Shown: positions 20,544 to 25,153 of the stretch, piece by piece | Numbering within the stretch: position 1 is the stretch's first letter | How the letters are laid out: every line of letters starts with the position of its first letter | From: Actinomycetota bacterium | GTDB taxonomy: Bacteria > Actinomycetota > AC-67 | Assembly: GCA_005884515.1 (NCBI GenBank) | Contig: VAWS01000060.1 | Coordinates: 1 to 55,779 of the forward strand | Direction of reading: 5' to 3' | Length of the DNA: 55,779 nucleotides | Position numbers and translations under genes: made by a program | Notes under the pieces: generated by a model | The model's input: only the letters and a program-made list of their open reading frames with translations | Databases searched by the model: none | Told to the model about the DNA's origin: nothing

Positions 20544-20560
20544 CCATAGCGAGCGTGAGC
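20544..20560. repeat. 3' arm of the 23S processing stem
   Basis: CCATAGCGAGCGTGAGC (plus strand) is the exact reverse complement of 25154-25170. A 17-bp helix brackets the 23S gene, as in RNase III processing stems. Confidence 0.8.
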
Positions 20561-20692
20561 GAACCAAGGCCTCGGCCTATTAGTACCGGTCGGCTCCACG
20601 TGTTGCCACGCTTCCACCTCCGGCCTATCAACCCGCTAGCCTTGCGGGGGCCTTACCGGATTAACTCCGTGGGAGGCCTCATCTTGGAACGA

Positions 20693-20723
<31 letters not shown>

Positions 20724-20866
20724 TCTTCCGCACATCGCCAACCAGCCGTGCTCTTGGCAGAACAACTGGCACACGAGCGGTGCGTCCGTCCCGGTCCTCT
20801 CGTACTAGGGACAGCCTTCCTCAAGCCTCCTGCGCCCACGGTGGATAGGGACCGAACTGTCTCACG

Positions 20867-21587
20867 CATGTTCATCCCGCATCACTGCGGGCACAGACTA
20901 TACCTTCACCCTCTTTCGAGGGGCCGGCGTGTTATGGAGCGCTGATTTGTCGATGATCGACAGTTGCTCCATCTCTTCGGATAAGCGATCCGAAGAAGTC
21001 GTTACGGGGACCGACACACCCTTGCTACGCAGATGCTGCTCGACATCTGCGGCGAAGATCCGCTTCGATTTCGAATAGTTTAGGGTTGCGAAGGCGTCGA
21101 CCTTGCGCGCGATCTCGAGAAACTCATCCTCTTTCATCCGCGGTCTGATCCGTTCGAGCAGCCTTCGTGCACGCCGCACGTGCTCGCGCTTGAAGATGAC
21201 GAACGGTTCGACCTCGGCGAGGATCTGCTGGAGTACCGGGCGGCTGGTGATCACAAGATCACTCATGCCGGTGCCTCTGTCGCGGATGTAACCAGCGCCG
21301 ATCATCTGTCGGATGTTCTCCAACCCTGACCGTGCCGATGTGCTTTGCGACAAAGACATGCTCGCTCGGATGTAGAACCCGAACTTGTACTCCCGCTGCC
21401 TGACGAGTTGGAAGTGAATGCTTCCATCTCCGTCGAGGAATCCTGCGAGATAGCTTGCTTGTTCCGCCTTCAATGTGTCGGCCTTCCCTCGGTATTGCCT
21501 CACCGTAACGTTCGGTTGTGACAGTGAGGTTCCACCGATATGAGCCGATGGGCATCCAAGGATTGCTCCTTGGAGACGCAGTGATCT
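20867..21587 (-). mobile_element. group I intron at 23S position L2593 (E. coli numbering)
   Basis: The exon breaks after ...GGGTTTAGAACGU and resumes at CGTGAGACAG. The insert ends in G. It has an R-like element, a P8 hairpin (CCCCTCGAAAGAGGG) and an S-like element (GAAGGTATAGTCTGTGCC), and contains a homing-endonuclease ORF. Confidence 0.85.
20898..21503 (-). CDS. LAGLIDADG homing endonuclease, single-motif I-CreI family
   Basis: YLAGFLDGDGSIHFQL...YKFGF...GAGYIRDRGTGMSDLVI...VEPFVIFK...EFLEIARKVDAFATLNYSKSKR aligns block by block with I-CreI. No ATG lies inside the intron; GTG at 21503 is the proposed start. The track ORF extends artefactually into the exon. Confidence 0.8.
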   Translation of the reverse strand: MRQYRGKADTLKAEQASYLAGFLDGDGSIHFQLVRQREYKFGFYIRASMSLSQSTSARSGLENIRQMIGAGYIRDRGTGMSDLVITSRPVLQQILAEVEPFVIFKREHVRRARRLLERIRPRMKEDEFLEIARKVDAFATLNYSKSKRIFAADVEQHLRSKGVSVPVTTSSDRLSEEMEQLSIIDKSALHNTPAPRKRVKV

Positions 21588-21654
21588 ACGTTCTAAACCC
21601 AGCTCGCGTACCGCTTTAACCGGCGAACAGCCGGACCCTTGGGAGCTGCTCCAC

Positions 21655-21692
<38 letters not shown>

Positions 21693-22195
21693 AGGCCGTC
21701 GATGTGGACTCTTGGGCCTGATCAGCCTGTTATCCCCGGGGTACCTTTTAGCCGTTGAGCGACGGCGCTTCCACTTGCCACCGCCGGATCACTAGACCCT
21801 GCTTTCGCATCTGCTCGACGTGTCCGTCTCGCAGTGAAGCTCCCTTGTGCTCTTACACTCGACGCACGATTGCCAACCGTGCTGAGGGAACCTTTGGGCA
21901 CCTCCGTTACTCTTTGGGAGGCAACCGCCCCAGTTAAACTGCCTGCCTGGCGCTGTCCAAGATCCGGATAACGGACCCTTGTTAGACGCCCAGCACTAGA
22001 AGGGTGGTATTTCAAGGTTGGCTCCACGAGGGCCGAAACCCCCGCTTCAAAGCCTCCCACCTATCCTACGCAACCAGAACCGAACACCAACGCCAAACTA
22101 CAGTAAAGGTCCCGGGGTCTTTCCGTCCTACCGTGGGTAGGCCGCATCTTCACAGCCAATGCAATTTCGCCGAGTCTCTGGTCGAGACAGCGCCC

Positions 22196-22228
<33 letters not shown>

Positions 22229-23017
22229 CGTGTGATCCCACTGTTACCAGTGGCACAGACTATGCCTTCATCTCATCTCTTGATGAGAGCCCGCGTGTTG
22301 CCTCAGCCGTAGATTTGCCGAGCGGCATGACTGAGGCCTCTCCCTTTCGGGATCAGTCGTTACGGGGCCATGCCTCTTTGAGGCAGAGGGCTTCCCACGG
22401 CATTACCCGGTGCGATGCACGGAAATCTGTTACCCCCACCTCTTACGAGATGGTGATCCGGTCATTTCTGCCGGACTCCCTATGTCGCCACAGGGTTCGG
22501 ACTATATCTTCAGCTCATCAAGCCGAGCTGCTCGGCGTGCAGTCTCTGAGGGTTCCGCACTACTTCTTCGAGTCGATATCTTCGCTGCTTGCCTCGTTGG
22601 TTCATCGCGAACGCTAACTCCACAATCGTCTGGAAGCCTGCGTCTATGCGATGAGCTTTCCGTTGCATCAACGTTACGATCTCGCGGAATTTCAGGAAGT
22701 CATCCTGCTTCTTTGAGATCAGTGGATATCGATCGAAGAACGGGATGATCACTGACTCCAACTCTTCGCGTCGGTACACCGAGTACGTCATCACGCTGCT
22801 GTTCGGTCCTTTGGCACGGATGTGCCCGTGGCCGAAGAAGTCGCGGATGGCCTCGAGTATCCCGACGTTGTCCCGATGCTGATATGCCTGAAAGCTTGGT
22901 GCGATCAGCCATCGGTTTCCGTATCGGACTGTCATCCACATATGACATCTTCGGTACCGCGAGATACACGGGACTTCCCAGCAAATAGCCGAGTTTTGTA
23001 ACGGCCTCTAAAGGTTG
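22229..23017 (-). mobile_element. composite insertion replacing 23S nt 1924-1951: an L1923-type group I intron (with ORF) plus an L1951-type ORF-less group I intron core
   Basis: The 5' exon ends ...GTAACTATAACGGU, and the IGS GCCGUU 12 nt into the insert can pair with AACGGU. The 3' exon resumes AAGTTCCGACCTGCACGAATGG after a G. Two R-P8-S sets are present: TCAGAGACTGCACG / GCCGAGCAGCTCGGC / AAGATATAGTCC, and CTGAGGCAACACGCGGG / CTCATCAAGAGATGAG / GAAGGCATAGTCTGTGCC. Confidence 0.78.
22510..22941 (-). pseudogene. LAGLIDADG-type (I-CeuI-like) homing endonuclease remnant lacking the LAGLIDADG motif region
   Basis: FQAYQHRDNVGILEAIRDFFGHGHIRAKGPNSS...LESVIIPFFDRYPLISKKQDDFLKFREIVTLMQRKAH...AFAMNQRG matches the post-motif part of LAGLIDADG_1-type enzymes. 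Upstream in-frame sequence back to the TAG at ~23009 has no LAGLIDADG helix. Confidence 0.6.
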
Positions 23018-23962
23018 ACCGTTATAGTTACGGCCGCCGTTTACTGGCGCTTCAGTTCAAAGCTTCGCCCTTGCGGGCTAACCTCTCCCCTTAACGTTCC
23101 AGCACCGGGCAGGTGTCAGTGGGTATACAGCGCCTTACGGCTTCGCACCCACCTGTGTTTTTAGTAAACAGTCGCTTGGGCCTGGTCACTGCGACCGCGG
23201 CCGGCTCGGGGCGAGAAGCCCTTCACCAACCTCGGCACCCCTTCTTCCGAAGTTACGGGGTTAGATTGCCGAGTTCCTTGACCAGAGTTCTCTCGATCGC
23301 CTTAGTATTCTCTACTTGCCCACCTGAGTTGGTTTGGGGTACGGGCACCTTTTCCACTCCCTAGAGGATTTTCTCGGCAGCATAGGATCAGTGGCTTCCA
23401 TCCATTGATGTCGGCGTCACGCCTCAGGATGATGCCGCCGCGGATTTTCCTACGGCGACTCCCTACGCGCTTACCCCGGGACGACCATCGCCCGGGCCCA
23501 CTTACCTTCCTGCGTCTCCCCATCGGTGGCCTAATACTGCGTGGTTCGGTAGTCCCCGAAGGGATTTCCTTAGCAACGCAGGTTCGGCTTTGGCGCGGAA
23601 ACGGTGGTACAGGAATATCAACCTGTTGTCCATCGACTACGTCTTTCGACCTCGCCTTAGGTCCCGACTAACCCTGGGCGGATGAACCTTCCCCAGGAAC
23701 CCTTGGGCATTCGGCGGAGGGGTTCCTCCCCCCTCTTTCGCTACTCATGCCGGCATTCGCTCTTGTCACGCATCCACGGCTGGATTACTCCGCCGCTTCA
23801 CCCGCGTGACGATGCTCCCCTACCGATCCCTTCGCTTGGACCTGTGTTGCACCCAACACAGGCCGGCTTGTGAAGAGATCCCGCAGCTTCGGTGACGTGC
23901 TTGAGCCCCGTTACATTTTCCGCGCCCAACTATTCGACCAGTGAGCTGTTACGCACTCTTTC

Positions 23963-23999
<37 letters not shown>

Positions 24000-25153
24000 A
24001 CACGGTTGGACATCGTTTCCCACTTAGCACGTTCTTAGGGACCTTAGCTGGCGATCTGGGCTGTTTCCCTTTCGACTACGGACCTTATCGCTCGCAGTCT
24101 CACTGCCGTGCTTAGCGTGTCGGTATTCGGAGTTTGCCTGAGTTCAGTAAGCTTGTAGGCCCCCTAGCCCAAACAGTGCTCTACCCCCGACACGGAACAC
24201 ACGACGCTGCACCTAAATGCATTTCGGGGAGAACCAGCTATCACTGAGTTTGATTGGCCTTTCACCCCTATCCACAGCTCATCCGCCCATTTTTCAACAT
24301 GAGTCGGTTCGGTCCTCCACGCGGTCTTACCCGCGCTTCAACCTGGCCATGGATAGATCACTCAGCTTCGGGTCTGCACCACGCGACTAGACGCCCTATT
24401 CAGACTCGGTTTCCCTACGGCTCCGGGACAACCCCTTAACCTCGCCACGTAGCGCAACTCGCCGGCTCATTCTTCAAAAGGCACGCCGTCACTTACCGCA
24501 CTGGTTGCCCAGCACGGTTTGCTCCGACGGTTTGTAGGCACACGGTTTCAGGTGCTATTTCACTCCCCTCCCGGGGTGCTTTTCACCTTTCCCTCACGGT
24601 ACTGGTTCACTATCGGTCGCCAGGTAGTTTTTAGCCTTAGGGGGTGGTCCCCCCAGATTCACGCCGAATTCCACGTGCTCGGCGCTACTTGGGATCCCAC
24701 TCGGGAGGTCAGTTACCTTTCGCCTACGGGGCTGTTACCTCCTATGGCCGGCCTTTCCATGCCGTTCGGCTAGGCGCTGACTTTGTGACTCCCTGGGAGC
24801 ACCAGCGCGCTCCCTGAATGGTCCCACAACACCCACGTGACAACGCCGCTGGGCTATCACGTCACGCAGGTTTGGGCTGTTCCCGTTTCGCTCACCGCTA
24901 CTAAGGGAATCGCGGTTGCTTTCTCTTCCTCGGGGTACTGAGATGTTTCACTTCCCCCGGTTCCCTCAACCTCGCCTATGTGTTCAGCGAGGAGTGACTG
25001 GCCATTACGCCAGCCGGGTTTCCCCATTCGGACACCCCCGGATCAAAGCCTGCTTGGCGGCTCCCCGAGGCTTATCGCAGCCTGCAACGTCCTTCATCGG
25101 CTCCTGGCGCCAAGGCATCCACCGTATGCCCTTCGTACCTTGGCTCTTAAGAT

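Follow-up and report, generated by a model that had tools for sequence, protein, structure and literature searches.

The 23S ribosomal RNA (rRNA) gene of an Actinomycetota bacterium (assembly GCA_005884515.1) is interrupted in its peptidyl-transferase region by a 721-nucleotide (nt) insert that we regard, with high confidence, as a mobile IA3-type group I intron with a gene for an I-CreI-like homing endonuclease. The gene lies in a stretch of 55,779 nt (contig VAWS01000060.1, positions 1 to 55,779), hereafter called the window. That the RNA splices and that the encoded protein cleaves DNA is what we infer from comparative sequence analysis and a structural model.

Rfam LSU (large-subunit rRNA) and 5S matches place the 23S and 5S rRNA genes on the minus strand of the window, the 23S gene at 20560..25145 with an approximate 3' end. 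Read on this strand, the 5' exon terminates in ...GGGTTTAGAACGT at 21588 (as a longer stretch, ...CUGGGUUUAGAACGU; this side of the junction may also be written ...GGGUUUAGAACGU), and the 3' exon restarts with CGTGAGACAGTTCGGTCCCTATCC at 20866 (as a longer stretch, CGUGAGACAGUUCGGUCCCUAUCC). The insert between them, 21587..20867, has A as its first base at 21587 and G as its final base at 20867. Its excision recovers the universal sequence around A2602 and places the insertion point after the equivalent of Escherichia coli U2593, between U2585 and A2602 of the peptidyl-transferase centre; a continuous junction, whether intron-less or ligated, would read ...ACGUCGUGAG.... The site (L2593) is unambiguous, because a shift of either boundary by a single base breaks the universal 23S sequence and no longer restores ACGUCGUGAGACAG. 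A first-pass annotation, made from the letters of the window alone, had given the same insert length and coordinates, the U at the end of the 5' exon, the terminal G, and the restored universal sequence, and on the minus strand all of these proved exact.

Further evidence comes from comparison with relatives. A scan of one genome per GTDB species returned 77 loci (L001-L077), and in 66 of these an insert could be delimited at exactly this site. These 66 inserts of 448-744 nt, with the window included as a 67th copy, served as the comparative set. All 67 copies end in G (the omega-G) and follow an exon ACGU. Because 66 of the 77 loci share the site and all 67 copies have these two boundary features, the occurrence of an insert at this site is far beyond chance.

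To obtain a fold, the interior of the open reading frame (ORF) was removed, 20 diverse cores were aligned by MAFFT, and a group I structure was drawn by eye. In the proposed fold, 99.0% of 1257 cells are standard pairs, and compensatory double changes are found at 31 of the 63 pairs; none of 500 shuffles reached the observed values for pairing or covariation. When the 3' partners were slid by 1-3 columns, only 35-45% of the cells were paired and 3-9 pairs were compensatory. It should be mentioned that the structure was derived from the same sequences, which favours the unslid register in this control. This bias is a minor concern, because the gap is large (99% against about 40%) and RNAalifold agrees. 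Working independently of the hand drawing, RNAalifold returned P1, P2, P3, P4, P5, P6, P7.1, P7.2, P8, and P9, and added a covarying P9.0; a set of 65 copies gave the same covariation picture as the set of 20. Taken as nested helices, P3 and P7 were only 21% paired and this arrangement was rejected; the crossing version, a pseudoknot, fits. The comparison thus supports a complete group I fold from P1 to P10, with a P3/P7 pseudoknot, P7.1/P7.2, P9.0, and a terminal G, and the earlier call of a group I intron at L2593 is borne out by the same figures.

The 5' splice site is presented by P1, whose 5' strand (21586..21591) consists of the exon ACGU at 21591..21588, with the splice-site U at 21588, and the intron AG at 21587..21586. 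It is paired with CUGCGU (21581..21576), a part of the internal guide sequence UCAC-UGCGU (21576..21584). The U.G wobble at the splice site occurs in 20 of 20 copies and in 65 of 65, and the two intron pairs of P1 covary between AG/CU and CA/UG. A short P1 of ACGU/GCGU had been suggested in the first-pass annotation; it is present, but the real helix is two pairs longer. P2 follows as a hairpin of 8 bp capped by a GCAA (GNRA) tetraloop (21555..21574), with compensatory changes at seven of its eight pairs.

In the core, the 5' strand of P3, UCGGC (21544..21548), pairs across the ORF with 20928..20924 and covaries between C:G and U:A (27 versus 38 copies in the 65-sequence set). P4 (UCGGUG 21538..21533 with UACCGA 21494..21489; 21489..21538 overall) is invariant and encloses P5 (CCUCAC 21529..21524 with GUGAGG 21503..21498; 21498..21529 overall), which covaries. 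The 5' strand of P6, GGCCGACAC (21475..21483), pairs with GUGUCGG-U-CC at 21017..21008 and so encloses the endonuclease domain; each of the 20 copies tested is predicted to form this duplex, and compensatory changes occur in it. The 5' strand of P7, A-(C bulge)-GACU (20997..21002), pairs with AGUCU at 20899..20895 and crosses P3. The G:C pair beside the bulged C, the expected guanosine-binding site, is invariant in all copies, and the P7 pairs are invariant apart from one double change from A:U to U:A. The covarying P7 5' strand is ACGACU at 21002, and another candidate for this strand or for an R-like element, AUCAGACCGCGG at about 21148 inside the ORF, was dropped, as it leaves no room for P3' and P8 and is not conserved.

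Between P7 and P3' lie P7.1 (20996..20988 with 20982..20974) and P7.2 (20972..20966 with 20940..20934), together 20934..20996, compensatory at seven of seven and four of seven pairs, respectively. The 3' strand of P3, GCCGG (20928..20924), is followed by the P8 hairpin CCCUC-GAAA-GAGGG (20922..20909), the two together spanning 20909..20928. The intron closes (20867..20899) with the 3' strand of P7, AGUCU (20899..20895), P9.0 (GUG 20894..20892 with CAU 20870..20868), P9 (20891..20876), and the omega-G at 20867. P9 covaries, and the P9.0 pairs are divided between UA (17) and CG (3) and between GC (18) and AU (2). Both the P8 and the S-like element GAAGGUAUAGUCUGUGCC noticed in the first-pass annotation are present; that annotation did not include the placement of the ORF in the P6 loop, P7.1/P7.2, the P3/P7 pseudoknot, or P10 and P9.0.

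P10 joins the UCAC of the guide sequence (21584..21581) to GUGA of the 3' exon (20865..20862), and it follows the exon when the exon varies. In seven genomes (L004, L005, L030, L039, L055, L056, and L077), the 3' exon reads CGCGAG instead of CGUGAG, with C at the U2596 equivalent (equivalents of window positions 20866-20861), and the guide sequence changes to match (CAC to UGC), so that an A:U pair becomes G:C and P10 is kept. In the 20-copy set the pair is AU in 14 copies and GC in three. Because P10 and P9.0 are used only for the choice of the 3' splice site and for ligation, their maintenance argues for ligation of the exons.

The assignment to an IA3-type subgroup is supported by two things, the presence of P7.1/P7.2 and the published typing of L2593 introns, and not by a score from a subtype model. 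Helices P7.1 and P7.2 between P7 and P3' are taken as a trait of subgroup IA (see also PMC1995217 and PMC6125680).

The ORF within the intron (20898..21473, minus strand) encodes 191 amino acids with a single LAGLIDADG motif, YLAGFLDGDGS, and runs from a TTG at 21473 to a TAG at 20900..20898. The unedited ORF call extends upstream into the exon and has the same stop at 20898. In most homologues the ORF starts with an ATG placed six bases beyond the conserved GGCC of P6; at the same place, a TTG is found both in the window (21473) and in its closest relative. The protein had been assigned to the I-CreI family from its motifs, and the searches agree: it matches Pfam LAGLIDADG_1 at 36.1 bits (cutoff 23.1), and phmmer against the PDB finds I-CreI at E = 4e-22, with I-MsoI and I-CvuI matched as well. 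Residues D20, Q47, and K98 of I-CreI, which we take to be the active-site residues in that numbering, align with D16, Q43, and K95, and all three are invariant among 15 homologues. An AlphaFold model has a mean predicted local distance difference test score (pLDDT) of 80.5, above 84 over residues 1-130 and below 50 for residues 161-191, and shows an alpha-beta-beta-alpha-beta-beta-alpha core. Its top fold matches in the PDB are I-CvuI, I-CreI, and I-MsoI, with target-normalised template-modelling (TM) scores of 0.83-0.89, and for I-CvuI and I-CreI the TM-score is 0.84-0.89 and the root-mean-square deviation 1.6-1.8 A. Sequence and model together support a single-motif LAGLIDADG enzyme of the I-CreI/I-MsoI/I-CvuI group, and the protein has 1168 relatives in the database at E <= 1e-5.

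The gene and the ribozyme share part of their sequence. Codons of about 152-191 (window 20898-21020, minus strand) double as P6', P7, P7.1, P7.2, P3', and P8, and the UAG stop runs into the beginning of the P7 3' strand. The protein tail ...HNTPAPRKRVKV reappears in distant homologues where the ORF reads that far. Because these codons overlap the ribozyme core and recur in distant homologues, and residues 161-191 are predicted to be disordered, the conservation of the C-terminal tail looks RNA-driven rather than protein-driven.

The relatives also show how the element changes. The closest named relative (L001, the metagenome-assembled genome (MAG) "Actinobacteria bacterium AC_67") has exons 99.4% identical to those of the window and an L2593 intron that is 94.0% identical. 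Of the 43 differences between the two introns, 37 fall in the endonuclease-coding part (positions 161-485), many of them 3 nt apart, and six in the ribozyme parts; for this reason, both the protein and the ribozyme look to be under constraint. Among the 66 delimited copies, the ORF is full length in 47 and truncated in about 19, although sequencing errors may account for some of the frameshifts in long-read MAGs, and the ribozyme core stays intact. This mixture fits the known cycle of gain and decay of homing endonuclease genes. Two decayed copies are the 609-nt intron of L029, which lacks everything from the 3' strand of P7.1 to P9, making the ribozyme fold impossible, and the 448-nt intron of L077, in which most of the ORF is gone and the whole core is retained. 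Among the 15 loci with enough exon sequence, a comparison of intron with exon identity, bearing on vertical or horizontal inheritance, gave no trend (Spearman -0.07).

If the element works as its parts suggest, an external guanosine bound in P7 would attack the phosphate after U2593 once the gene has been transcribed, and the terminal G would then take its place in the pocket. P9.0 and P10 would align the 3' splice site, the freed 5' exon would join the 3' exon, and the ligation would restore the ...ACGU-CGUGAGACAG... strand needed by the ribosome. At the DNA level, the endonuclease, presumably a homodimer, would cut intron-less copies of the 23S site (...TTTAGAACGTCGTGAGACAGTTCGG...), and repair from an intron-containing copy would spread the intron, that is, homing.

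Several points weigh against this reading. The start codon of the ORF is TTG. P4 and most of P7 never vary, and the support for these helices is confined to position and sequence. With a 92-nt gap elsewhere in the 23S gene (described below), the assembly of the window may not represent a working gene. Finally, the general group I model of Rfam (RF00028), the check proposed in the first-pass annotation, gave no match on 20800-21650 at its gathering threshold or at E <= 10, nor did it match the L2593 intron of L077, most of whose ORF is deleted. On the group I status of the insert this last result is uninformative, because this model has a documented blind spot for IA3 introns at LSU/2593: it found none of the archaeal ones, for which subtype models were needed (PMC6125680). 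An endonuclease gene in P6 also split covariance-model hits (PMC6125680).

Three other explanations of the insert can be considered. The one that survives best, although we think it unlikely, is that the intron derives from group I and no longer splices by itself, needing the help of a protein, which could be a host factor or its own LAGLIDADG product in the role of a maturase. Nothing direct speaks for such dependence; the overlap of the ORF with the core from P6' to P8 is compatible with it. To our knowledge, however, maturase activity is a property of other LAGLIDADG lineages, such as that of I-AniI, and is not known in the I-CreI group, the about 19 of 66 relatives with a broken ORF keep an intact core, and all the helices of the catalytic core are retained with compensatory changes.

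A second explanation, which we consider very improbable, is that the insert is removed without ligation of the exons, in the manner of the intervening sequences that fragment rRNA, or is retained in the mature rRNA, as reported for the L1931 intron of Simkania. Retention has a precedent in a paper entitled "An unspliced group I intron in 23S rRNA" (Everett et al. 1999, cited in PMC11270868). On the other hand, covariation is seen in both P9.0 and P10, and for P10 it involves the exon itself; neither helix has a role besides aligning the 3' splice site and ligation. Moreover, from what is generally known, neither a 721-nt insert nor a break of the chain in the peptidyl-transferase centre is likely to be tolerated. 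The third explanation concerns the assembly, and is taken up after the rest of the gene has been described. 

The window 23S gene contains two further introns. The second group I intron (L1923, 22423..23017, minus strand) follows ...AACGGU, and the window lacks its final base. RF00028 matches it at 39 bits (E = 1.6e-7), short of the gathering score of 50. The Pfam match of its LAGLIDADG ORF (22941..22510, 143 amino acids) begins only at profile position 24. As its sequence stands, this endonuclease gene is degenerate, with the catalytic N-terminal motif evidently gone; an exact look-up of the window L1923 ORF in the gene-position index gave no match. The third intron (L1951) is an ORF-less IA3-type intron of which the window holds only the 3' 194 nt (22229..22422, minus strand); it is complete, with 258 nt, in the JGI contig L078. 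It shares core blocks with the L2593 intron, namely GCUCAUA.CGG, GGGYAAU.CCG.GGGAAG, CCCCGUAACGACU, AACACGC.GGC, and GUGAAGG.AUAGUCUGUGCC. The L1951 introns of this gene and of relatives (L078, L070, and L006) have the helix order of the L2593 intron, including P7.1/P7.2, but differ from it in having no ORF, in their length of 258-275 nt, and in their site. Of the introns of the L1951/L2593 type, RF00028 detects none but the complete L1951 copies of relatives, and these weakly (30.9-43.8 bits, against a gathering score of 50).

Between the L1923 and L1951 introns, the universally conserved 28-nt exon CCUAAGGUAGCGAAAUUCCUUGUCGGGU (1924-1951) is absent from the window. Two JGI metagenome contigs (L078 and L079), which match the window at 99.97-100% identity over 3.4 kb, have 92 extra nt. 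The additional bases (L078 506-597; junction 22422|22423 in the window) begin with the final G of the L1923 intron, continue through the 28-nt exon, and end 63 nt into the L1951 intron; the junction itself shows no repeat. Because these two near-identical contigs contain the missing 92 nt, the organism's real 23S gene is most likely intact with three introns, and the gap in the window reflects an error of assembly or else a dead allele with a lethal deletion. The exon sequence of the 23S gene amounts to about 3126 nt in the window, and to 3154 nt when the missing 28-nt exon is put back.

This gap, a defect of the kind that assembly produces, lies in the same gene, 840 nt upstream of the insert; together with the frequent misassembly of rRNA regions, it is what could be said for the third explanation, an organellar or foreign rRNA gene misjoined to a bacterial contig, which we dismiss as wholly improbable, since the same insert is found in the two independent JGI contigs at 99.97-100% identity and at the same site in 66 MAG loci, including megabase-size long-read contigs and a complete chromosome of 5.56 Mb, the exons on either side share 99.4% identity with those of an Actinobacteria MAG, the window carries ordinary bacterial genes (pheS, pheT, argH, and PBP1A), and the composition of the insert is unlike that of an organelle.

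Around the 23S gene lie common housekeeping genes (pheS, pheT, argH, PolX, and PBP1A). The GC content is 56% in the L2593 intron and 66% in the window, and the GC content at third codon positions is 0.71 in the ORF and 0.77 in pheT; the L2593 element is at home in a high-GC genome. No 16S rRNA or tRNA gene was found anywhere in the 55.8-kb window, so that the 23S-5S pair is unlinked to a 16S gene. The Rfam match for the bacterial LSU (21552-25145) places the end of the model (position 2925) at 21552, inside the L2593 intron, and omits the real 3' exon (20866..about 20560). Automatic annotation would therefore truncate this 23S gene.

All 77 loci belong to Actinomycetota MAGs, mostly Acidimicrobiales/Acidimicrobiaceae with some Frankiales, and no cultured strain is among them. 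Their 23S genes have 1-5 insertions of at least 100 nt, the five being found in L030, and genes with 2-5 introns are frequent. The insertion sites are at about E. coli 1917, 1923, 1931, 1951, ~2262, ~2500, 2593, and 2604, the numbering being approximate away from the anchored sites. In several loci (L008, L016, L017, L019, and L051), another intron begins 11 nt 3' of the L2593 intron, after ...CGUGAGACAGU. The sets of introns differ even between close relatives, which speaks for mobility: the window has L1923, L1951, and L2593, and L001 has L1931 and L2593.

How does this element compare with those already described? In the cyanobacteria Synechococcus lividus C1, Synechococcus sp. C9, and Thermosynechococcus elongatus, Haugen et al. 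(2007, PMC1995217) reported L2593 introns of 744-748 nt in which P2 and P5 are short, P7.1/P7.2 are present, and a single-motif LAGLIDADG ORF of 159-189 amino acids runs into the core. Likened by this published description, the present intron shares with them the 23S site, the architecture, and a similar length (721 versus 744-748 nt); the hosts differ, being thermophilic cyanobacteria there and high-GC uncultured Actinomycetota here. Nawrocki et al. (2018, PMC6125680) described archaeal IA3 introns at LSU/2593 with an endonuclease gene in P6, in which P3 and P6 span the insertion. Site, subtype, location of the gene in P6, and the failure of RF00028 are the same as in our case, and the host domain is different. 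Compared with I-CreI, from the Cr.LSU intron of the Chlamydomonas reinhardtii chloroplast, the actinomycetotal protein is a homologue of about 30% identity with the same fold and the same active-site residues, and it adds a C-terminal tail of 30-40 residues that is encoded by the core and predicted to be disordered. The genes of I-CreI, I-MsoI, and I-CvuI sit in chloroplast introns at this same rRNA position.

Among bacteria, a parallel is offered by the Candidate Phyla Radiation (CPR), in which Tsurumaki et al. (2024, PMC11270868) found 23S insertions with LAGLIDADG_1 genes at 1917, 1931, 1952, 2593, and 2604, several per gene. These hot spots are those found in the Actinomycetota relatives, whose hosts, in contrast to CPR, are free-living organisms with large genomes. 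In the same paper, rRNA introns in non-CPR bacteria are treated as limited to a few species (PMC11270868). We found no paper describing rRNA group I introns in Actinobacteria or Acidimicrobiia, although the literature covered was incomplete and this is not proof of absence. The remark in the first-pass annotation that such introns are not a described feature of these genomes is thus consistent with what we found, but the architecture had been published for cyanobacteria (PMC1995217) and LAGLIDADG insertions at 2593 for CPR (PMC11270868). In other words, the kind of element is already known, and the new points are the host phylum and its abundance there.

We lean, with some reserve, to the view that rRNA group I introns have a large and so far undescribed reservoir outside CPR in uncultured Actinomycetota, mostly Acidimicrobiales: at least 77 species-level genomes carry the L2593 intron, about eight sites of the 23S gene are used, with as many as five introns in one gene, and the sets differ even at 99.4% exon identity. 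In any case, the known range of a classic mobile element, the IA3 intron with an I-CreI-type endonuclease at the peptidyl-transferase centre, now includes a major soil phylum, in which it is common rather than a one-off. That all 77 genomes are MAGs may explain why no description was found. There are practical consequences as well: models of rRNA mis-call the gene and lead to truncated 23S annotations, and surveys by polymerase chain reaction (PCR) or probes can overlook such bacteria. The related endonucleases, in more than 1000 clusters, form a natural collection of I-CreI-like meganucleases that are adapted to hosts of high GC content and all target a near-universal 23S site, and in the close relatives with differing intron sets one could study how homing elements are gained and lost. 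If the view above is true, the supposed rarity of rRNA introns in ordinary bacteria would be a bias of culture, and these common soil bacteria would, as a matter of routine, need several self-splicing events to make their ribosomes.

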